64,000 nucleotides of DNA from Bispira polyomma (taxonomy: Eukaryota): the NCBI GenBank assembly GCA_965649765.1, contig OZ287756.1, positions 7,564,001 through 7,628,000 on the forward strand, read 5' to 3'. Shown piece after piece: positions 8,068-64,000 of the stretch; position 1 is the first letter of the stretch; each line of letters starts with the position of its first letter. The translations under genes were made by a program, and so were the position numbers. The notes beneath the pieces were generated by a model. The model was not told the origin of the DNA. It was given only the letters and a program-made list of their open reading frames with translations, and did not search any database.

Positions 8068-9126
8068 TTATCGGCATAATCGTGAAATACAGTTTTTGAG
8101 TTCTTTCTTGAAGCTCTCATATTTCAGCGTGTATATGACTGGATTTAATCCACAGTTGACAAATATGAGTATATTTGCCAGTTTCTGTGCGAATTCCCTT
8201 TGATCAGACAGAAAGCCCAACAAACCAATCACTATCAGCAATGTTGCTGGTAAATAGCACAATACAAAACAGACACATACAATGAACATGGTAACTAAAA
8301 TATTATTCTGCATTTTTGAAAGCCCTCCATTGGATGAGTTAGCTGAAATTGGGGCTACTTTATGTTTATTTCTCAGTGTCAAAAAGATCTTGGTGTAGAC
8401 AAATATCATGAAACAAGTAGGAAATACCTGCACAGTCATAAACAAACTGAAGCCAAAGATAGCCTTGTGTAGGCCACTCTTCCAAAAGTACATGACTTCG
8501 CAATTGCCCTCTTGAATTCCGGACGTAATGATCAGAAATATGCCAAAGACATGTGCAAACACAAAGATGGCTAGTATCCCAACGAAGGCCAATTTCTTAC
8601 TTAAGTAGTTCTTATGCAGCACTGGCTTAGCAACCATGAAGTATCTCTCTAAGGTAATCAGCACAATGTTGTAGGTGGAGGCAATCAAGAATGTCCATTG
8701 CGGAAACTGTGACACCAAGATTCTGCAAATGATCTCGCTGTTGACGGCTAGGCCATGTGGCAAGGTGCAAATAATGAGAAACAGCCCGCACAGACAATCA
8801 AACATAGACTGACTTTTGATGAAGATGTTGGTCAACTCTTGGTTCATGGTTTTGTTCCTTGACAGGACAATCAAGACAAATAGGTTGCCGAAGAAAATGA
8901 AGAGACCAGTTGGATAATTGAGGATAGCAATATGAGTTTCCCATTTTGTTCCACTCGGTAAAGGATCATTCATTGCAGTTGTATTGCTGTTGGCAGATTT
9001 TGCGATGTTGGTGGCATCATCTGTGATAGTGACCATCATCATATGAGAACTCACGTATGTAGATTGGCTAAAAGGGGACTGATAAAATAATGACTCAGTA
9101 ACTGCTGTTTGATTTGCCATGTTCAT
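8068..9126 (-). CDS. Intronless rhodopsin-family (class A) GPCR, orphan peptide-receptor-like
   Basis: Seven hydrophobic segments with TM1 GN, TM2 QSxxD, TM3 C...ERY, TM5 P, TM6 CFxxCYLP and TM7 NPVIY, plus N-glycosylation sites in a Ser/Thr-rich N-terminus. The start is placed at MNM (9126) rather than the ORF-track start 9228 because of the paralog alignment and the TATA box. Confidence 0.93.
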   Translation of the reverse strand: MNMANQTAVTESLFYQSPFSQSTYVSSHMMMVTITDDATNIAKSANSNTTAMNDPLPSGTKWETHIAILNYPTGLFIFFGNLFVLIVLSRNKTMNQELTNIFIKSQSMFDCLCGLFLIICTLPHGLAVNSEIICRILVSQFPQWTFLIASTYNIVLITLERYFMVAKPVLHKNYLSKKLAFVGILAIFVFAHVFGIFLIITSGIQEGNCEVMYFWKSGLHKAIFGFSLFMTVQVFPTCFMIFVYTKIFLTLRNKHKVAPISANSSNGGLSKMQNNILVTMFIVCVCFVLCYLPATLLIVIGLLGFLSDQREFAQKLANILIFVNCGLNPVIYTLKYESFKKELKNCISRLCR

Positions 9127-9206
9127 TTCTAACAAGCTGACCTGATACATGTAGTCTGTAGGATGCAAAAGGGAGAACTGATGATTTCCCACCTTGACGG
9201 TCCTGG

Positions 9207-9214
9207 TTTTTATA
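9207..9214 (-). promoter_or_regulatory. TATA box of the GPCR
   Basis: GGGTATAAAAACC on the minus strand, conserved with 186-193. An Inr-like TCAGTT lies at 9176-9181. Confidence 0.6.
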
Positions 9215-12200
9215 CCCATGGCAGACACAAAAACAAATGACCATTGTCAGTATGGATTAAAGATACTGTGTGTTACTCACTCTAAGTTCACCAATTATCA
9301 GTCTGTTAATTAACAGTTATTCTTTCTCATTGGTATAGAACTGGACAATAATAACACATCCTTTTATTTTGAGTCTAATTTTCAATTAGCCTTTGTTAAT
9401 TATAGGGAGGCCCGTGCGATGGTCTTTGTCAACCAAGGTTATAATGCTTTTTGACTGGCCTCAGCGAAAAAGGAAACAATATACATGAAGCTGTTTTAAA
9501 AGAATGAATTATTCACAATCTAGTAATTCCTCTGCAATTAGTCATCACTACAATGGATGCATTAGCTCATAACACAAGGATTTCTCTTGGTGAAGAACTT
9601 TACATGCAGGCAATCACAAATCTGACAATTATCTGCATTCCGAAAATTGTAGCGCAATTGTTTCATACTACAACCTATGTAATCTATCCAATATCTGGTT
9701 AAAAATGGAAATTTGTGCTAAGATGATTTTGTGATAAAATGATTACTTTCTAAGGGGCCTTGGATAGTGTATTTTATTTGCCAGTGAAAGTTTTAAAATG
9801 TTGTCAGTGCAAATTTATTCCTAAAAATTGTAAAGTAGTAAACTTTTGATTCTACCTAAAATTCTTCTATTTTATGATTACTGAAATGGATGTGGTAAAT
9901 GACTCTGGCAATATTTAGAAAGCTATTTCCAATATCACACTAATATAAAGATACGTCTATCACCCTGAGACATGACTGAATGGTAGCATCTACAATATAT
10001 TTATAGAATCTCTATAAATGCTGTTATTAGAGAGGTTTCGTGCTATGTTTCCAACTCTTTATACTTAAACTGGAATAGGTATGTTGGAGAGATAAGCCAT
10101 CCATAAAAGAAGTAGAGGTTTCATGGGACGTTAGTAAACCCAGCTAAAACTGTACCCTACAAATGCACATATTATTGGCCTTGCCTTGTGTCTTAAACGG
10201 GCCTGTTGTAACTATTACACAGAATTTTAAACTAAAAGTCAGAACGAGCATCCTTACACAATCTTTGTTAGAATTATATGACTTCAACATTTTTATAAAA
10301 GATAAGTGTGACCACTTTCGTACTGACACCATGTAATACGTAAATTAGCATAAGTATTGGACTTATGACGTAGAAAAAAGCATGTAATGCCCTAATATTT
10401 TTATTTAAATATGTCACAAAACTTTTGTGATATCTAAATCTAACATTGTACCAAATTTATTTGCAATAAAAGTTATGTTAAATCATAAATATATTGAATA
10501 AATTTATTTGATAAAAAATTAACAACTTGGAATAGAAGTTTTTAATCATGTAAAAAAACTTGGAAACTGTTCTTAAATTTTAAAAAATAAAATAAAACTT
10601 TTAAAACAGGACAAATGACAGTCATCAAAATATTACCATCTTTATTTTAAAACCCTGAGCATTACAATTCTAATAACACAAAACTAGAAAACAATCAATA
10701 CTCACACTACATGCTTTACAACATACAGTGTTGAGGGTGGTTATTGTAGGTGACATAACAAGGCCAACCCAGAGCAACGATTGGGCAGAAATACAGAGAG
10801 AATTGAAATTTATGTCACACACAATAGCAAGATGCGGCGAGAATTTAGGGTGACGTGGAGGTTGGGGTTTGTTGCAGAAATAAAATTGGCTTTTTGTTAA
10901 AGTCTAAGATTGGGGTAGAAAACTACTATTGATTGTGTGTGATAACAAATATTTTTCCAACAAAATTTCCCAGTGATGAAGGCAAAAGGAATTAAATTAT
11001 TCAATAAAAATTGCTGTGACAGTGACCAAGTACTGAAACATAAAAACCGAATTTGTGTGATGCATGAATGATGCAAATAATATGAAATATATCAAATGAC
11101 AAGATATGAAACAAACGTTGGTTCCAATCCTGAATATATATTAGAAAGTGGTAAAGCATAAACAGTGTTAAATGTGGAAAGTGAAAAAATGTGATCGTTT
11201 GCCACAACGTGAATGGAGTAGCTGTACAGTAAAATATTACATAAAAATATTAGGAAACTATGGAAGTACAAACATAGGGGTTTTCACAGAAGACGATATG
11301 CTGTAATATATGTATTGATTTCAAATTAAAATTGACATCAAAAAGCTTAATCAAATAGAAATGTTATCATATTTGGAATTTATAGTATGAATATTTGCTC
11401 AGCGTTTGATTTTATCATACATATAAGACATGTATATCATTGTAAACATTAAATGGATCCATGTTGTAATAATACTTGCAGATGATGTGGCTTTGATGTG
11501 CCATTCGTAGGACAGATAAATGGTTTATTGATACAGATTATATCATAAAAGTAAGATTGGTACCATTGACTGAATGGTTTATTGTAAACTATTTCATGCC
11601 TCTGATCAAATGAAAAACAAGCAATAAACCATAGATAAAGTTTGCTGTTACTTTTGAAATTTTACATATAGGAAGTTGTTGTTTTAGGTAAGTATAATAA
11701 ACTAAAACTCAACTTTGCTAAAACAAGTGAACACTTAGGGCCGTATTCTCATACCAAGATCAATTCTGACTCAAGCTCTTTGCCAACGTCTCCCTATTGC
11801 TGGTGAGAGGAGAGATGTGACTGCATATTTGAATTCAGCACTAACTGCTCCATTAAAATAAATAGTCACAAGTATAGGATATATATATATATATGCACCG
11901 GAGTAATAAATAGGCTTCACTTATCTTGAGTTGGAGCTTGAGTTTAGTAAGATGAAACAGTCCCTGGGATATATTTGTGTAAGTGTATAGGAAATATATA
12001 TTAAATAAAATATTATATTAAATATATATATCAGCAGGCATAAGATACACATAATGCATCAGATGCAGTGTATTTATACAGGATATATTACTGCTTCAAG
12101 CTTTGCTTAATATATGGATACACAACGATCTACAACTACTTACATACAAAGTTCTTGGATCGGATAATTACAGAAATAAGTTAATATATGATATCTTAAA

Positions 12201-40496: not shown

Positions 40497-40674
40497 GGCC
40501 AGTACAGAGAAATTTGAGAGGGAAGTAAACCTAGTGGTAGACTACAATGGTACAGTCAGGTGGTATCCACACAGAATCTTCTACAGCACCTGTTCTATTG
40601 ATGTCAGGGATTTCCCTTTTGACAACCAGACCTGTCACCTGTGGTTTGGTTCCTGGACCCACAAAGTCTCGCAA
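40497..40674 (+). CDS. Cys-loop LGIC exon 4 (loop E, Cys-loop, loop B)
   Basis: CSIDVRDFPFDNQTC Cys-loop and FGSWTH. CATAG| acceptor and |GTATGC donor. Confidence 0.95.
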
Positions 40675-47819: not shown

Positions 47820-50050
47820 TAAATTTATATAGTGCAAATATCAGAGTAGTATTTCTGTTCACAAGCGCTTTGGCGATGATAATGAGACAAAAAGAATATG
47901 TACATGTACAATATTTTAGATTAAATTTGCATACAATAAGCTCTTCTAAAAAGATATGACTTGATATGAATTGTTTTTTGAAAGATGTCACCAATTCACA
48001 GTTTCGTATGTCTTCAGGGAGTTTATTCCAAAGTTCTTGTGGTGCTTTTTTAAAGGGTTTGTCACCATTTCTCTTTAAGTTGGTTTTGGGGTATTGTCAG
48101 TAATGAGTCACTTGTGGAGTGAAGTGTATGTGTTCGATTATATGGAGTAAGAAGGTCAGTTTGGTATTTTGGTACCCTGCCCTTTAGGCATTTGTAAGTG
48201 ATAATAATTATAATATATCAGACTTTTTTAGCACTTATTTTCATTGTAACGAATTCTAAGGCGCAAAAAACCACAGCCAGAGTAAAAAAACATAGGTGAT
48301 AGACAGAAGGGAGTCGTCATCAATGCCTCCACCGAAAACGGAAAAGAGATTATGGAGGGAATGCATCATTGTACAGATAGGTCTTTTAACTGGGCCGGAA
48401 GGAATACAAGGGATGGAGCTGTCCTAATGTGTTGAAGCAAACTATTCCATAGGGTAGGGGCATCATTTGCAAAACTTTTATCAAAGTGAACCTTTGACCT
48501 GTGTACTTTGGACAAGGAGTAGTTTGTAGTTTGAGACAAGGAGTAGATTGTACTGAATCCTCTCTTCTTTTGGAAGCCAGTGTAATTCAGTCAACATTGG
48601 AATTACAGGGTCAAATTTTTGGCCACCTAGGATTAATTTTGCTACACAGTTCAGAACTGACTGTAATTTATTGAGCTGCTTCTTCGGACATTTGTGGAGC
48701 AGACAATTGTATAGATCTAAGCGAGAGGTTACAAAAGCATGCACTAGGATTGTGCATGCCCTTTTGGTCAGATATTTTCTAATTTTATTAAGGTTTCTTA
48801 GACGACTCCAAGCTGGTGCTGATATGTGATTAATTTGATGCTGTATACTTAGTTATGAGTCCAGATAGAGGCCAATGTTTTTCACAAAGGATTTAATCAC
48901 TATGTTTTTGGGCTTCAACATAGTTTTGTCATCATTCAGTTTTAGAAAGTTTGATGTCATCAATTTTTACACATCTTTGCAGCATCTTCCAACTCGTAAA
49001 ACTGCGTTTGTTACTGCATTTTCCTTGCCTACCTTGAAGTGAACATATAATTGGGAGGCATCCACGTAGAAGTGGGGTACCACCAAATGTGATCTAATGA
49101 CTTTGCCAACTAGCTCTGTGAAGTCACCTGGTCCCAAAATAGACCCTTGTGGAACATTCAGTTTTATGATGGCTTCCTTTGATAGCATGTTTTTCACTAG
49201 CAGTAGCTGTCTCGGTGCTGTGATATTGGCGATATACAGATTGTGATGTTTCCAGAAGGTTATGTGAATCCTTGTATGCATTTAATGTAGCTGAAACTAC
49301 TTTTTCCAGTAATTATGATGCAACTGATAGATTTCAAATGGGACGAAAAATTTTCAATTTCTCTGTATCAAGTGTTTCCTTATTTAGTAAGGGAGTCATA
49401 ACTGAACATTTAAAACACGATAGAACAATCCCTGATTTCAATGATAGGTTGATAATCCTTGCCAGTACAGTTGTAAAAGTTCTGATACCTTTTTTAACCA
49501 CACTTGACTAGGTAGGACTAGCTTTTCAATTTCCTCTTCTGTTGTTGGCACATTAAGGGTCAGAGTGGAATGTGCTGGATAATCAAACATGTGTGGGTCC
49601 TCTCCAATTTGCTCACTTAACAAAATTGATTGTATTTTGTCAATTTTTTTAATAAAGAAATTATTGAAATTTTTAAGCGGGGAGGCTTTAACACCACTTG
49701 CCACCTTTTTGTTCTTTTTCTTATGTGCTAAAGTGTTCACCATTTGAAATAATTTATTCTGATCTCCAGCCGAGTCTGCTATGATTTCAGTGAAGTATGC
49801 TTTTTTTCCTTTTTGAGATAACGCTGGTTGCTTTGTTTTTGTCATTTTTTTATGCATGGTTGGTTTTAGTGGATTTGTTGCCTTTCCATCTTCTTTCAAA
49901 TTATTGTCTTTCTGACACAATCAACTATGTTGAAAAAGCAATGTTTAGAAAACCTGAACCAAACAAAGTATATGTACACATCTATGCGCTTCCGATATAC
50001 GACGCTGATTTGCAAAAGCAATTTTTTGTATCCTTGTCTAGTTGTTCACA
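47820..50050 (-). mobile_element. Cluster of L2/CR1-type LINE fragments
   Basis: HAFVTSRLDLYN...LHWLP, NVPQGSILGP, HFYVDASQLY (cf. YADD), and KAYFTEII...QNKLF...FNNFFIKKIDKI. At least two 3' ends are present. Confidence 0.85.
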
Positions 50051-50522: not shown

Positions 50523-50784
50523 ATAGACCTGCATCTAGATATCCCAGAAGGCATAGACCTGACCACCTACCAGTCAGACTTCAAGGCGACCTCCAAGTGG
50601 GACATCACCGGTGTGCAGGCTGACCGGATGGTGGACGAGATGGCTGTGTTGACCTTTACCTTGTACCTACAGAGGAGGATGATCTTCTCCAGTTATATCC
50701 TCACCTTCCCAGTTATATTTATGTCCTTCCTCACCCTCCTTGTCTTCTGGCTGCCATCTGATCATGCAGACAAGAGTAATCTGG
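50523..50784 (+). CDS. Cys-loop LGIC exon 5 (loop F, short loop C, M1, start of M2)
   Basis: ACCAG|IDLHLDIPEGIDLTTYQSDFKATSKWDITGVQADRMVDEMAVLTFTLYLQRRMIFSSYILTFPVIFMSFLTLLVFWLPSDHADKSNLG|GTAATT. Confidence 0.93.
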
Positions 50785-52239
50785 GTAATTAAGGGTGCAT
50801 TCCACTTTTGCGACCTCAACCATCAATTTTGGGGCCGAAGTAAGCAACCTACAAATCGTACTAGTCGGAACCCGATATTTAGTAATCACTCGAGTCCACG
50901 TTGCTTTATCAACTTGCCCCTAACTCAACTAGAACTCTGGGGGACTAATGCGATCACAGCCAGTATCTTTTTGTTCTCACCAAGATAGCTGTAATGTTAT
51001 ATTGTATTATTTCTAAATCACCTTACCCATGGAAGATAAAGTTTGTAAGTGTATTTTCAGTGATTTTTAAGGATCGAAACAGCCTTGAGAACGTATTACG
51101 TCCTATCTTTATAGCTTCCATGGGGGCTCTAATTAGGCGTGCACAGGCAAGTGCTTAGTGGTCCTCTCCTGATTTAACACCTTGTGTTTTACACAGTATC
51201 GAACTTTGAATCAGAATATAATTTAAGTAATAAAATTACCTTGTGGTGGGAGATTTGTAGGTTTTGTAGCCATAAAGGTACCCAATTGAAAGTTTGGAGA
51301 AGTTTTTACTGTACAGGAAAGATAAGTAAAAGATAAGTAAATATCTAGATGTTTTAAAGTATTGTAGTGCTTGCACTTCACAAAGAAGTTATAAAAAGTG
51401 AAAGCTATAGTATCAGTAGTCTTTCAGAAATTTGCATTTTAATTAATGTCACAGTGTGTTAGAAAAAAAACTAAACATAGGCACACATTCTGCTAGATGA
51501 TGCGTCATAAAAGATTAACATTTTGAAAGCACAAATGTACGTATACATGTTTAGTAAATGCTTGCTTCCTAGAATTCTAAAATGAACCATTTTTTGACTG
51601 CGTAAGTACATGAACCACCATCCAGTGCCAGTATCTGTCACATTTTCCTAACTGAATACAGAAGTTTTAAGATAAGTATATAACAACATCCCCAAAGTTT
51701 TGTAGCTTGATATTAGATAAATATACTGACGACCGCCATTTTTAGCCACAATGTATCCGTCTGTTCTAACTAGGCTGTGATCAACCATTATTAAGCTAGT
51801 GTACTGTCCACTAGGCCATAAGCCAGTGTGCCTCATAGGTGACAAAAATTGCATTGACAGTGTTGCAATCATTTGTTGGTAATTGTCTCCATTGTTCGTG
51901 TGCAGTCACCTGGGGAAAGAAACACAACAAATGCGGCCTTCCAACGCCATCGTTGAGACAGTAAGATGACACCTAGAAGACATACATGAAATACCAAAAG
52001 AAATTTAGGACAGAAACTTTTTGCGATTACACAACATTTAATATCGCGACTTGTCACCTAACCAATTCTCCCAAGTGGGATTGGGCCATATTAGTGGTAA
52101 CAGTATCAACAATCTTGGCAATGTGTAAATTTTGTTCTCCAGCCATATTCCAACAGTACACTATATTTAATAAATTTACAGGTTATGTACATAGCCGATT
52201 TAGTTGTGTGATCATTTTATAACTATTATTAAACTCTAG

Positions 52240-52326
52240 GTATGACCATATTCGGTAGCCTTTTGCTACTTTTGCTGATTCTGGTGGAAGCTGCGCCCCC
52301 CACGAGTGCCGCCATTCCAAAGTTAG
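52240..52326 (+). CDS. Cys-loop LGIC exon 6 (M2 and M2-M3 loop); not in the ORF track
   Basis: CTAG|(G)MTIFGSLLLLLLILVEAAPPTSAAIPKL(G)|GTAGGA, 87 bp, phase 1 to phase 1. Confidence 0.92.
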
Positions 52327-54122
52327 GTAGGATTATTTTCTTATACAATATAAATATTTGTGTCTTAAAGACATACCAGTGTAGCCAATCACCTTTTAAT
52401 AATAATATTTAGTCTAGTCAAGAAGAGGCTACGAGAACTTGTAGTGCCTGATATATTTCATTGTGTAAAAATATATTTCGACCTCATATCATGAATTATG
52501 TCTCATCAGAGGCTGGGGTAGTGTATCGTCAATAGCCCTAAGGTACAAAAATGGTGTCTGGTTTTATCCAGTGTTATCCGGTGGATATCACATCTTTTAT
52601 CCTGTTTATTCTGTTTAGTTTCCAGTTTTGCAGGATATTTTTATATGAATTGTGCATAAACCAAATACAAATATGCAACAATTCTTAGTCAATATGTTGA
52701 CTTTAAATGAATAGTAATAAAGCATCTTATGAAGACGGTTTCCTTGGTGACAAACTCGCATTGCATTCTGACCCATTGCGATGTAATGTCTTATAACAGA
52801 TCACCCTTCAAGTTTGAATAATAATATAAAGTAATGTAAAGTAATAAAAAGTATGTAGATTTACTGTAAAAAAATAAGGAAGTGCACGCCACAGGAGATA
52901 CATACCACATAAAATATAACAGTGGGATTTCAATTACTCTTCTCTGAGATTTTGAAGGGAATGCTTCTAACACCTAGACTGCGGTTCCCCCTACTCATAT
53001 TTTAACCTGTTCACAACTGTATAGTATTCCACAGTACAGAAGGAGATTCACAGGTTAACAGGTTCCAGATAAGTGTTGTCGGTAAAGAGCGACTAACACA
53101 GTAGAACCTGGCATATCATTACCGCTTCATGTATATTTCTATAAATATAGAACTACAAAATAAAAATATAGTATATGGCTGTTGACTGATAGTCAATAGA
53201 TATACCTTCTCCAAAAAGGGTTTGGTGTCAACTTGCGAGTCGGAATGCGAGGTTGGCGGAATGCAATGTGGGAAGCACTAATTCATATCGACACTTCTTG
53301 CATTGTAATTGATATATTTACAATTGTAATATATTCATGTCATGTAAACGCCCCCCTTACCCAAATTTAAAAAATTAAAAAATATTTACAATAGTATTTA
53401 ACTTATATTTTGACAGCAGCTTGAAGTGTGCATAACAATTTAAGATCAGTTGCACTTTTCATTTATATATATGCTGCAGATGGTTAAGATAAATAATTTT
53501 TTTTTTTTTTTTTTTTTTTGGGGGGGGGAGTTATCTGTTTATGTGTTTCATTAATGTAAGAATGACTTAGCATTTGCTAGTGTTAATCAATGTACATACT
53601 ACATACTATCAATCTAACGTTTATAGCTATTTTATGCTGGATTAACCTTGTCAAAGTATGTTTAGCAATACATCCGGCTTAACACAATCTATCTTATTCC
53701 GAAAATCACTAAGAACAGGCCACGAGGAAGAGTTACTATGCATGTAATAGGTGGGACATGACCCGGTTGTAAATTGATGGAAAGTGATATATACAAACAA
53801 GTATTGGCTTCCAATTTACATTTACAATGAGTCATTTTTGTCTGTTTGTTTTTGTTATGTTTTTGTTTATCATTATACCTTAACATATTCAACTATCATG
53901 AAAAACAAAAGTTTCAGCCACTTGGGAAATATTTCACGTTAAGATTAGATATAAATCATGTAAATACATCTATTTTACACTATTTGGTAGATTAAACACC
54001 GAAACAGCTTTCAGGGATTTTCTACTGTTTTAATATTGTCATTGTGATACTATTTTCTTTGTTTTCAGGGCTTTGCTACTGTTTTAATATTGTCATTGTG
54101 ATGCTGTTTTCTTTGTTTTCAG

Positions 54123-54250
54123 GGCTTTACTACTGTTTTAATATTGTCATTGTGATGCTTTCCATATTCCTGTCTTCATTAATTGCACATATTGGGGGCG
54201 CCGGGAAACCAATGAGAGCACGAAAACCAGTACCTGCTTGGCTAAGAAAG
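54123..54250 (+). CDS. Cys-loop LGIC exon 7 (M3, MX helix); alternative in-frame acceptors at 54015 and 54069
   Basis: TTTTCAG|(G)LYYCFNIVIVMLSIFLSSLIAHIGGAGKPMRARKPVPAWLRK|GTATGC. Confidence 0.9.
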
Positions 54251-57413: not shown

Positions 57414-58608
57414 GTGCTCGTATTTACAAGCACTTCAATGGAAATAGGTTCTAAAGAAAAATTAAATACTAATATTGAATCAGATAGGAGAGATTTGAAT
57501 TGCACACAAATTTCTTTTCTTGTGAACTGGAAACTATATGTGCAAATTCAACTACCCGACACCCAACACTTGATATAGAAAAGATTTAGCCTCCATAATC
57601 CTCTTGATATACAAACTATTAATAAGTAGGTCCCCCCGCCCCCTCTGTCTCATTGGGTAAAATTAAAGAAATTTTTAATGGAGATATTTGTACTGGTACT
57701 GTAACAGTTAAGGCCCACGAGGAAAAAAGGTGAATATACAAATATTGTATTGAAAGCAAAATGGCACACTAAATGCACCAGTATATTAATAGAACATTTA
57801 AAAAACAATCTGTAAACCATTTATTTCCAGCCAAACAATAGGTGGGTTTAACTGTTGTAGCACTAGTAGTCGATGTTACATACTTGATCGGTTCAGATGT
57901 GATGGGGGCGGGTGTGGATCTCTATTTAGTTTGGGATTTAACATCACTTTCGAACATGTTTTGTGTCATGTTATCACTGTCAGGGGAAATTAGAGCCGGG
58001 TATATAGTTTGTCACGGTCTTTGTAAAACGACTGGCCTTCAGCGAGTCTACTGTAGGGATTTATTCCAGCACCATTGAATCTCATGTCGTGCTTATGGGC
58101 TGCTTGATATAGATTGCTGAAAAGAATGGCCGTCACTATCATTTTTCTTGATATATAAACTACTAGTAAATATCTATTTATAGCATACATTTGCCATCAC
58201 TAGCTTCCCTGAAACATTTTTATACACCACACATATACCCGATGAAAATAACTACAATGTACCAATACTTGACTTTTGGTAAGTCTAGTATGTATGGTTT
58301 ATAGCTACAGATAAGCTGTGTTCAGCACTAGAAGGGTACATTACTATAGAGTAGTTGAGTAGATCTTCAATAGACTGTTACCCAGTGTGTGGTACTACAA
58401 TGCACCCATACTTATTGTTTTGTTTGTTATTTTATTATGATTGTGGATGATTTCAAGCTACAGAGAAGCTGTGCTCTGCACTTAAAGGGTTCATTTATTG
58501 AGAGTAGTAAAATAGATCTTTAATAGACTCTTACCCCGTGTGTGGCACTTGCAGTGCATCCATACTTGGTCTTTTTGTTAATTTATTATTATTGTTTATG
58601 ATTTCTAG

Positions 58609-58796
58609 CTACAGAGAAGCTGTGCGCTGCACTACAGGGGTACATTTCTCAGAGAAAAGTGGACGAGAAGCGACAGCAGGAAATTAAGTGCGTTAACCAA
58701 GACTGGACTTACGTAGCCACAATGTTGGACAGGATCATTATGTTCATCTACTTACTGGTCATTATTGCATCACTCATATGGTTGTTCCCGCAATGA
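58609..58796 (+). CDS. Cys-loop LGIC exon 9 (MA helix, M4, stop); not in the ORF track
   Basis: TTCTAG|(A)TEKLCAALQGYISQRKVDEKRQQEIKCVNQDWTYVATMLDRIIMFIYLLVIIASLIWLFPQ*. DWxxVAxxLDR is diagnostic for this family. Confidence 0.93.
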
Positions 58797-59199
58797 AAAA
58801 TGAGATAAAAAGGAATGACATGTAACTTTCACTTCAGTAATAATATCCAACAGTCGGTGGACGGCATTGATGTTTGACAGAAGCAGAGAACATTGGAAGT
58901 AAAAGATTTCAAGATAATGGCCTTTCAATGCAATAGATTTTCAGAGACTATGATCAGACAATTATCTCAAGACTTTTTGTTGACCCAAATACTGTAATAT
59001 TATATAGGTTTCTATTTATATGTTTTAGGTGCAAGTTAGTTGTAATAATTGCCTTCTTTTACCTGGTCAATGCCGAAAGAGTCTTGAAACTGGATATTTT
59101 CATCTGAGAGTGGAAACTTTGTTTTTTTAAATACTCCACTTAAATAATTATTATGCAGCTGAAGGTAACACTAAGCAATAATACATAAACATATATTAT

Positions 59200-59770
59200 G
59201 TTACCTGAGCTGTAGGACCTCAAAGTCACACATTAATTCTGTTATTTGAGCTGTAGGACCTCAAAGTCGCACATTAATTCTGTTATCTTAGCTGTAGGAC
59301 CTCAAATAACACATTTTGTTATCTGAGCTGTTGGACCTCAAAGTCACACATTAATTCTGTCATTTAGGCTATAAGACCTCAAAGTCACACATTAATCCTG
59401 TTATCTAAGCTGTAGGACCTTAAAACCACACATTAATTCTGTTACCTGAGCTGTAGGACCTCAAAGTCAAACATTGCTTCTGTTACCTGAGCTGTAGGAC
59501 CTCAAAGTCACACATTAATTCTGTTACCTGAGCTGTAGGACCTCAAAGTCACACATTAATTCTGTTATCTGAGCTGTAGGACCTCAAAGTTACACATTAA
59601 TTCTGTTACCTGAGCTGTAGAACCTCAAAATCACACATTAATTATGTTGCCTGAGCTGTAGAACCTCAAAGTCATAGTCATTACGTTACCTGAGCTGTAG
59701 CACCACAAAACCCAAGAATTCTGGCACCTCAGGTATAGTACCTCAAAGTCACACATTAATTCTGCCGCCT
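59200..59770. repeat. 41-bp minisatellite, ~14 copies
   Basis: Unit GTTACCTGAGCTGTAGGACCTCAAAGTCACACATTAATTCT, head-to-tail with no spacers. Confidence 0.95.
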
Positions 59771-61537: not shown

Positions 61538-62565
61538 CTAAAAAGATCTTGCAAACCAAGTAACCCCCCCAAAAAGCAGGGTGATCGAACCTGCACCCAC
61601 TAATGGTATATATAGGAAAAACATTGGTGTGTAGTTCCCAAAAAGGAACCCTACCAGTGCCGGCATCGACATAAATCCAATATACTGGATCAAAGAGAAT
61701 AGTGTTGTCTTCTTGGTACAGCTATTCAGCTTTTGCTGGCTAAACGATATTAAGTTTCCGAAGACTGGAGAAAATGCCAGACCAATCAACACTGTACACA
61801 CCCAAGTGATAACGATGCTTCTTGTACACGCCAATGTCATCAGTAAAAGACCGAGAAAGGCCACAAAAAAACAGACAATAATTAAATACTGCGGACATAC
61901 AACTTTAGTTGCTGGAATGCTCAAAGCCCTACCAATGGCTAAACTTCCCCAATACGCAGTAGTAATTAACGCCGCCGTGTCAAACGAACGTTTCAGATAT
62001 TTCACAACAAAGCTTAATATCCATGCCCCATACGTACACTCCATGCCACCATAAATAAAGCTTATAATAAGTAGAGTAACCAGCAATGGCTTACTACGTA
62101 CTGGTCCACCATGATCGGTTTCTTTTTGCAAAAAGCTATCAACCCTGGATAGGCCCTGTTTTCTAAAGGTTACAACGGCAATGCAAAAAACTACTACAAA
62201 AACCAAGGATGCTGTAAACATAGCCACAGATGCAATGAGATAGGGAAACAATATAACTGGCATTTCACGATTAGCAGCAGCGGTAACATTACTCATACCA
62301 TCTCTTGAACTTTCATTTGTAACATCCGAACCTCCTAAATCTTGGTACAAATTATACACAGTTTCATTACTTGAATTACCATTCACTACTCCTGTTGGAA
62401 CAGATGAATTTAAGGGTATTATGGTGGCTTCGTCAGCTAGATGTGAAACAAAAAGATCAACTATCAATGGTGTAAGACAGGATCCAAAGGATGTAATGAA
62501 ATGTAAGGCTTGCAGATACGGTGGGGACTTCAACCGCCAGGTTTTCACCACATACGAATTGCATC
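61538..62565 (-). CDS. MFS transporter, MFSD4/NaGLT1-like, last coding exon
   Basis: CCATAG|(G)CNSYVVKTW..SPPYLQALHF..FGS.LTP, YGGMECTYGAWI and YWGSLAIGR, with multiple TM helices and a stop at 61538. Confidence 0.88.
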
Positions 62566-63256
62566 CTATGGCAACAACAAAAAATACATTAGTTTCTATG
62601 TATCACATTTGGGGAACAAAAATAAATAATAGTGCATAATAATATGTATAAAAATGCTTTTTAAATATGGTGCAGTTGATGTATATGTTTATGATCTTTA
62701 TGATCACACAACTATTATTATAATATTCAAGGCTATATTAGTGCCTATAACTAATTCATTTAACTTAAGCCATATACTTAAAGGTATATAACAATGGTAC
62801 ATGAATTAGATATTGTCTAAATGTCATAATATCTGGTTATTTGTGTTCAATCGATTTCACTCTATAGTCATAATGTTACCTCCCTATTTTTACATGTTAG
62901 GATATCTATATTAATACTTTTACATTTTTGCATTAATTTTAGAAAACAAAAAGTATCTCACTACTCTATAAGCCTTTCAAAACAATATATGAGGAATATG
63001 TGCGCTTTATCTCTGCACTTAGTGGATTCTAAAGCTATAACAATGACCGTATGTTAAATTCATGAATTTTATGAGAGATTATCATTACCTCTTCTTACCA
63101 GTGATAGGCACTCTTTATTTCTATGAAATATCTGTATAAATATGCAGTTTCACATAAATAAAAGAAATACCAAATCAGATAGAATGAAAGAGACATTAAT
63201 TTCCTAAAAAAAACTCAAAATTTAAATATGTATCACCTTTTTTATATAAGACCCAC

Positions 63257-63542
63257 CTGCACCTATTATACCATGTGAAAAACCTCCAAAAACTATAACT
63301 ATCCCAAGAACAAGGAAAGACTTGCAAAACGGTACCCCAAGATTTGCTCCAACCAAGCCAAGGCATCCCAAACTGAGGATGACCTCTGGAGGGAACATGC
63401 CGAACACAAGGGCAACCAAAGCATTGCCCATTAGTGAACCACTCGCTCTCCACAAGAAAACGGAAGCGATTTCTTTAGTCGTCGATCTTGTCTGTACTTC
63501 TAAGTGAAGAATTGTTGCACCGAGAATGGAATTCCCCATTCC
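63257..63542 (-). CDS. MFS transporter, MFSD4/NaGLT1-like, penultimate exon (first exon not located)
   Basis: CTACCAG|GMGNSILGATILHL...SVFLWRASGSLMG...HGIIGA(G)|GTGGGT. It ends in phase 1, matching the next exon. Confidence 0.85.
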
Positions 63543-64000
63543 CTGGTAGGACAAACGTCAATATCAATATATATATATTATACATATAAACATACAAAAA
63601 AGTATAGATTGACATAAAAGTATGAATTTTTATTACATATAATGAAAGCACGTACATGAAAATAGTAAACATATACAGGTAAAATTCATTCAGGTATAGA
63701 TATATATATATTCTTTTATGTATATCTTGTCTTCATATAGTCTACACAAACAGTGCAAGTAGTAAATTCTGACTGAACGATTAATCAGCAATACAATCGT
63801 CTTGCAAAACACAGCTGTTTTCTTGCAGAAAATCATGATCATGTATTATTTTTTTAATATATCAGATGCTCCATTTGATTTGAGACACTTGGGTAAAGTT
63901 GTTTTTTTCAGAGAGTCTTAATTATGTCTCATTGTATTAATATATCAGAAGTTCCTTTTAGTTTTGTAGAGACACTTCTCACTTGGTCACAATTTCTGCA

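Follow-up and report, generated by a model that had tools for sequence, protein, structure and literature searches.

Glycine at the 9' pore position of a nicotinic-type receptor subunit from Bispira polyomma, a small-residue trait of a subfamily related to AChRB

Textbooks place the gate of pentameric channels at a ring of leucines in the 9' position of the M2 helix. Gating energies in the muscle receptor are largest at the pore-facing positions 9', 13' and 16'. Two of these, 9' and 16', form the narrowest parts of the closed pore, and serine at 9' makes unliganded opening rise with each subunit that is changed (PMC10757554). Alanine at 9' slowed desensitisation in every pentameric ligand-gated ion channel (pLGIC) examined, but in ELIC it also sped deactivation (PMC4485021), so the phenotypes of 9' mutants do not transfer everywhere. 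Small residues at this position have been met mostly as engineered mutations with a gain of function (PMC10757554; PMC4485021), and vertebrate subunits carry Leu9' throughout except for Val in alpha5 and beta3 (PMC10757554).

The described receptors that are most relevant here are those of the AChRB family (Octopus AChRB1, the anionic nAChRs of Lymnaea and Schistosoma SmACC). This family is anion-selective and has the motif PAK (Pro-Ala-Lys at -2'/-1'/0') (Courtney preprint 10.1101/2025.04.02.646353; PMC4055736), which according to the Courtney preprint is carried by every AChRB gene. An acidic residue at the -1' site is a hallmark of cation channels and Pro-Ala is a hallmark of anion channels (PMC4055736). 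That nicotinic genes have expanded in lophotrochozoans is already known (PMC6896357, PMC13174522). Among the expanded families, the Alpo3-like family 41A occurs in all sampled lophotrochozoans and its polychaete members lack the vicinal disulfide (De Gieter 2023, PMC10338036); an acidic -1' residue is implied for Alpo3, which was kept out of experiments for a missing M4 (Wijckmans 2016, PMC4801368). Position 9' is not mentioned for this family in the accessible text of either paper. Family 41A may correspond to AChRB plus the subunits described below, a match made by description rather than by sequence.

We analysed a window of 64,000 nucleotides from Bispira polyomma (contig OZ287756.1, positions 7,564,001 to 7,628,000 of the forward strand) and assembled from it a gene model of eight exons that encodes 426 residues and contains no internal stops (Table 1). 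The model comprises a ligand-binding domain with a Cys-loop and four transmembrane helices, as in a nicotinic-type pLGIC, although the Pfam matches of single exons to the membrane region fell below the curated cut-off. A signal-peptide exon upstream of 28640 was not located in the eight-exon model, and there may be another small exon ahead of the one that encodes the intracellular loop. Aromatic residues are present in loops A, B and D and absent from loop C, which is short and has neither the vicinal cysteines (YxCC) of nAChR alpha subunits nor tyrosines. Because of the missing vicinal cysteines, the subunit is classed as non-alpha. It has Ala-Asp-Lys instead of PAK at -2'/-1'/0', and at 9', where a bulky hydrophobic residue is typical but not required for a nicotinic-type pLGIC, it has Gly.

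Table 1. Features of the receptor gene, in window positions.
Feature	Position	Strand	Evidence
Exon: N-terminal helix, beta1-beta2, loop D tryptophan	28640..28823	+	AG/GT ends, tblastn of homologs
Exon: loop A region	38940..39049	+	tblastn of homologs
Exon: Cys-loop, loop B tryptophan	40497..40674	+	Pfam Neur_chan_LBD E=1e-18
Exon: shortened loop C, M1, M1-M2 linker, M2 to codon 4' base 1	50523..50784	+	
M1-M2 linker residues Ala-2', Asp-1' (50769-50771), Lys0'	within 50523..50784	+	
Exon: M2 4'-20', M2-M3 loop	52240..52326	+	
M2 residues Thr6', Gly9', Ser10'	within 52240..52326	+	
GGT codon, Gly at M2 9'	52254..52256	+	contigs of 3 runs; paralog codons GGA, GGC
Leu13'	52266-68	+	
Leu16'	52275-77	+	
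Ile17'	52278-80	+	
Glu20'	52287-89	+	
Exon: M3, MX	54123..54250	+	
Exon: intracellular loop	57053..57197	+	match to paralog at C9:1.04 Mb
Last exon: MA helix, M4, stop codon	58609..58796	+	Pfam Neur_chan_memb

The M2 helix is split by an intron, and the identity of its 9' residue depends on the junction 50784|52240. This junction is canonical, with a GT donor after 50784 and an AG acceptor before 52240, and the codon that it splits (G|GT) encodes Gly4'. The same codon 4' intron position is found in both DR-type (Asp-Arg or Asp-Lys at -1'/0') and PAK-type paralogs. Seven acceptors between 52150 and 52300 were tried and only that at 52240 left the frame open and preserved an M2 helix. Of the remaining six, five led to stops and the one at 52291 skipped M2, and alternative acceptors were thus ruled out. 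The prime numbering of M2 and the labels of loops A to D are those that we take to be general for this receptor family. A homolog with Gly9' (P0150) aligned without gaps to solved alpha6 and alpha4 chains across M1, M2 and M3, which makes the numbering sound, and insect alpha7-like proteins have Leu in the column that holds Gly9'. Contigs from all three sequencing runs checked contained no other letter at the GGT codon, these runs representing at most two samples from one study that is possibly the assembly's own source. An earlier sequence-only reading had placed Gly at 9' in a register free of gaps and had named a shifted splice junction, or Leu in reads, as grounds for doubt; its M2 sequence and register were borne out, and the genomic sequence and contigs gave no sign of either.

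Comparison with paralogs indicated that the gene is maintained. Against its nearest paralog (80% identical), dN was 0.134 and dS 1.81 over 371 codons, a dN/dS of about 0.07 that marks the gene as being under purifying selection, and conservation was higher in the M2 exon (dN 0.033 over 28 codons). At 9' the window gene uses GGT and its two nearest paralogs use GGA and GGC, and as synonymous sites are close to saturation, Gly9' has been kept by selection and not by chance. That the glycine stems from wrong splicing, a sequencing error or the neutral decay of a pseudogene is therefore extremely improbable. While the junction was predicted from DNA alone and two broken DR-type copies exist at C9:21.23 and C9:21.27 Mb, the canonical GT-AG junction lies at a conserved intron position, the contigs agree, the 426-residue frame is open under the dN/dS given above, and Gly9' recurs in homologs (P0147, P0026) on short, transcript-like contigs. 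As judged from these comparisons, Gly9' is a real residue under selection, and one common to a subfamily related to AChRB.

The distribution of small 9' residues was surveyed in the Bispira genome by a search with the M2 exon, which gave 33 candidates and 32 matches, and 30 loci were read. The 9' residue was Gly, Ala or Ser at 13 loci, Leu at 8, Val at 5, Asn at 2 and Phe at 1, and one locus was frame-broken. Leu at 9' had been called near-universal beforehand; with 8 of these 30 loci it falls short of that here. In all 13 genes with a small 9' residue, the exon ahead of it encodes Asp-Arg or Asp-Lys at -1'/0', and these genes account for 13 of the 14 intact DR-type genes. The fourteenth, an alpha-type gene with Asp-Lys at C11:8.93 Mb, has Leu9'. 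Three DR-type genes with Ser or Gly at 9' are themselves alpha-type with YxCC (C9:6.29, C2:52.0 and C7:44.65 Mb), and the genome also holds three PAK-type alpha genes with Val9'. Its PAK genes lie at C6:24.2-24.4 Mb.

Other loci in the same genome drew attention in their own right. Two GEK-type paralogs, L050 (G000:C5:77.36 Mb) and L053 (G000:C5:66.35 Mb), are long single frames with Asn at both 9' and 12', and paralog L045 (G000:C11:17.17 Mb) has Phe at 9'; by their residues these three are further unusual gates. Three adjoining divergent pLGIC genes (L055, L056 and L059, G000:C12:24.70-24.72 Mb) have long open frames that span M1-M4, and an M2 that starts with Glu-Arg-Glu. The broken tandem DR-type copies (L043, L119-L120 and L127, G000:C9:21.23 and 21.27 Mb) are accompanied by an apparently intact copy at 21.19 Mb.

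Homologs were also collected from databases by HMMER search and by alignment queries, the best 120 matches of each search being used; a search with a single 86-residue exon as query returned no matches. The resulting alignment had 266 rows, 263 of them with an intact M2. Our grouping rule selected 29 DR-type rows, from which three misgrouped GER/GEK proteins and the window gene were removed and to which two missed rows were added, leaving 27. Their 9' residues were Gly (4), Ala (11), Ser (11) and Arg (1), that is, small in 26 of 27 and never Leu, with the proviso that three of the 27 rows are apparently one Dimorphilus locus. Like the window subunit, 25 of the 27 are non-alpha; alpha-type DR subunits with a small 9' residue were found in Capitella and Paralvinella as well. 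All 14 rows with a species name among the matches listed came from annelids (Dimorphilus, Capitella and Paralvinella), the other 13 being without a name. No named mollusc or flatworm member was present among the best 120 matches per search, although mollusc and flatworm AChRB relatives filled the listing of the second search. This suggests that the DR subfamily is confined to annelids. Small residues were found at 9' in 5 of 118 PAK rows; among AChRB-type proteins, too, there are thus small 9' residues (Ala or Ser in the PAK/PSK-type proteins P0070, P0145, P0146, P0099 and P0344).

We then asked how these subunits are related, using a tree of 78 of 86 rows from which the M2 and intracellular columns were removed and three long branches and five near-duplicates were left out. 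The window gene fell in a clade of 31 rows with support of 100/100, in which seven rows had Gly at 9', ten Ala, thirteen Ser and one Arg (30 of 31 small, no Leu), and Gly9' occurred on at least four separate branches of the tree. The first branch within this clade is an alpha-type gene (97/82). A second DR group consists of three alpha-type rows with Ser9' (100/99), and the two DR groups together with the PAK-motif receptors formed a clade of 68 rows (100/100) that excludes GEK-type subunits, which gives DR and AChRB subunits a common ancestor. The question raised earlier, whether a small 9' residue is a feature of a clade, is thus answered in the affirmative by both the tree and the database rows: by these alignments it is a trait of the subfamily, and the single gene is not special. 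Small 9' residues were engineered in vertebrate receptors; in the DR subfamily they are natural. Full-text searches, in which the prime sign could not be used and which covered few subscription journals, no figures and only some of the supplements, turned up no description of them in these receptors.

In this tree the DR subunits group with AChRB and not with alpha7, which the sequence-only reading had used for comparison and which the AChRB/PAK family should replace. In a quick tree of 38 rows, likewise without M2, PAK monophyly had a support of 90 and DR monophyly a weak 54, and for this reason we make no case for a return to cation selectivity from an anion-selective ancestor. Identity with the dopamine-gated DopC channels was considered and rejected: DopC channels form an alpha9/10-like clade with YxCC (Daphnia DopC preprint; Courtney preprint 10.1101/2025.04.02.646353), whereas the window subunit lies outside the alpha9/10-like rows and has no YxCC.

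Structural comparison placed a Gly9' homolog in the nAChR fold. A monomer model of this homolog reached a pLDDT of 85.8 overall, with an unbroken M2 helix at 93-94, and its best structural match was alpha7 (E=2.6e-33); a single subunit does not define a pore radius. An earlier model built from six sequences (pLDDT 49) was set aside, and the matches in the ESM Atlas were generic pLGIC clusters only. Vertebrate alpha7, alpha4 and alpha6 are only 27-29% identical to the modelled homolog but share with DR subunits the fold, a gap-free alignment over M1-M3, Leu16' and acidic residues at -1' and 20'.

Pore residues were counted in 26 DR rows, including the window gene, and 118 PAK rows; the GEK group, being mostly vertebrate beta3 with Val9', is not a representative comparison. 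The two families share the length of the M1-M2 linker, a similar M2 pattern, the acidic 20' and the codon 4' intron. They differ in that AChRB members combine PAK with Val or Leu at 9' (111 of 118, of which 86 Val), whereas DR members combine Asp-Arg/Lys with Gly, Ala or Ser, and in that 17' is Leu in 103 of 118 PAK rows but invariantly Ile in the 26 DR rows. Also, most DR members lack YxCC in loop C. In the DR group 6', 9' and 10' are small or polar, and 2' is small in most members. Leu16' is found in all 26 DR rows and in 112 of the 118 PAK rows, and 13' in the DR rows is divided between Val (15) and Leu (11).

Of the 26 DR rows, 25 have Asp at -1' and the remaining one has Glu. Acidic residues at both -1' and 20' had been read as signs of cation selectivity. 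The inference may hold for -1', which discriminates between the families, but not for 20', which is uninformative on selectivity here because it is Glu or Asp in 108 of 118 PAK rows, so that Asp-1' is the sole hint of cation flow in DR subunits. One alternative is a channel that, like the related AChRB receptors, still selects for anions, or selects poorly; Asp-1' would lie off the ion path and the small 9' residue would affect kinetics only. The grouping with AChRB at 100/100 argues for such a channel, as do the Pro-2' of the anion motif, which 16 of 26 rows share, Arg or Lys at 0' in all, and an Asp that is shorter than the usual Glu. We nevertheless hold it to be very unlikely, given that the acidic site is the cation hallmark and Pro-Ala the anion hallmark (PMC4055736), and that both Pro-2' and Ala-1' are missing from the window subunit.

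We give about an even chance to a reading in which the window subunit is the non-alpha component of a ligand-gated, likely cation-permeable heteropentamer with DR-type alpha subunits, which would close at 13'/16'/17' and desensitise slowly. By this reading, the window subunit would provide the complementary face beside alpha-type DR subunits, and co-assembly with the products of the three alpha genes with Ser or Gly at 9' could place five small 9' residues in each pentamer. The inner pore would be wide and polar, as 6', 9' and 10' are all small in the window subunit, cations would probably permeate on account of Asp-1', and closure would fall to the upper hydrophobic rings. By analogy with engineered 9' mutants, opening would be easier and desensitisation slower; the sequence-only reading had proposed that the subunit may be leaky, of low threshold or non-desensitising. 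Acetylcholine is plausible as the ligand only at interfaces with an alpha partner.

The rings at 13', 16' and 17' deserve scrutiny, since the sequence-only reading had offered a gate shifted to the Leu run of M2 as one possibility. This was an overstatement: only 13' and 16' of the run face the pore (PMC10757554), Leu16' is canonical, and 13' is Val in more than half of the DR rows. Because Leu16' is canonical in all groups, the upper hydrophobic ring is best regarded as inherited and not newly built. A hydrophobic constriction in the upper pore, at 16', has precedents in Alpo4 and ELIC (PMC10338036, PMC4485021), but there 16' is a bulky Met or Phe as opposed to the canonical Leu16' of DR subunits, and ELIC has Leu9' where they have a small residue. 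As no compensating bulk has been added, with Val13' in most members, the upper rings may fail to close the pore alone. A channel that conducts at rest for want of a bulky 9' ring, and is modulated or shut by pH, a blocker or a ligand, would accord with these residues, with the loss of the loop C agonist motif in most members, and with constitutive openings of 9'Ser and 9'Ala receptors that scale with the number of changed subunits (PMC10757554), the progressive rise in the muscle receptor being what favours a leak. The hydrophobic rings are nonetheless fully retained, alpha members keep YxCC, and it would presumably be costly for about 13 paralogs to leak cations at all times; we consider a tonically open channel distinctly unlikely.

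The composition of the pentamer is the other point on which the heteropentamer of DR subunits could fail. The Leu9' DR-type alpha and the three Val9' PAK-type alphas of the same genome are alternative partners and speak against an assembly of DR subunits only. The window subunit might instead be an accessory, present in one or two copies among AChRB or GEK alphas with Leu or Val at 9', in which case the gate would stay at 9' and the subunit would raise sensitivity or weaken anion selectivity. Its non-alpha character fits this role, as do the additive effects of 9' changes per subunit (PMC10757554) and the failure of Octopus AChRB2 and AChRB3 to give homomeric current (Courtney preprint). We think such a tuning role unlikely, as DR alphas with a small 9' residue here, in Capitella and in Paralvinella point to receptors built within the group.

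A broader version of the DR heteropentamer can be put forward tentatively: an annelid branch of nicotinic receptors that assembles from its own alpha and non-alpha subunits, has abandoned the 9' gate for gating at 13'/16'/17' and conducts cations beside an anion-selective sister family, perhaps as a tonic or non-desensitising sensor of a ligand other than acetylcholine. As a natural, selected subfamily with small 9' residues in both alpha and non-alpha subunits, the DR receptors allow a test of whether the upper rings alone can close a channel, and of how desensitisation is controlled without 9'. Together with AChRB they also form a natural pair for charge selectivity, Pro-Asp-Arg against Pro-Ala-Lys at equal linker length.

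The receptor gene and its surroundings contain several repeats and mobile elements. A 54-nt unit stands in 2.8 tandem copies at 54009-54159, so that the beginning of the M3 exon, with its acceptor and initial codons, is duplicated in frame and without a stop; splicing to the acceptors further upstream would extend the protein by 18 or 36 hydrophobic residues ahead of M3. This repeat is absent from the nearest paralog. The last exon shows a similar arrangement, its acceptor and beginning being part of a 153-nt unit (2.4 copies, 58291-58655). Duplicated acceptors are thus present at two exons of this gene. An intron holds a retroelement at about 30900-35700 with gag-, reverse-transcriptase-, RNase-H- and tyrosine-recombinase-like frames, broken in places, which by ORF reading is DIRS-like, and reading of ORFs also identified LINE-like reverse transcriptase fragments in introns at 29006-29659 and 48480-49920, both on the minus strand. 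Among the neighbours, a single frame of 392 codons at 8068-9246 (minus strand) resembles a rhodopsin-type G-protein-coupled receptor by ORF reading. Downstream, on the strand opposite to the receptor gene, lies a major-facilitator transporter frame (61538-62602, possibly with 63222-63557, both minus; Pfam MFS_1 E=0.0017, below the cut-off), and a 41-nt minisatellite of 14 copies (59195-59764) follows the receptor gene.
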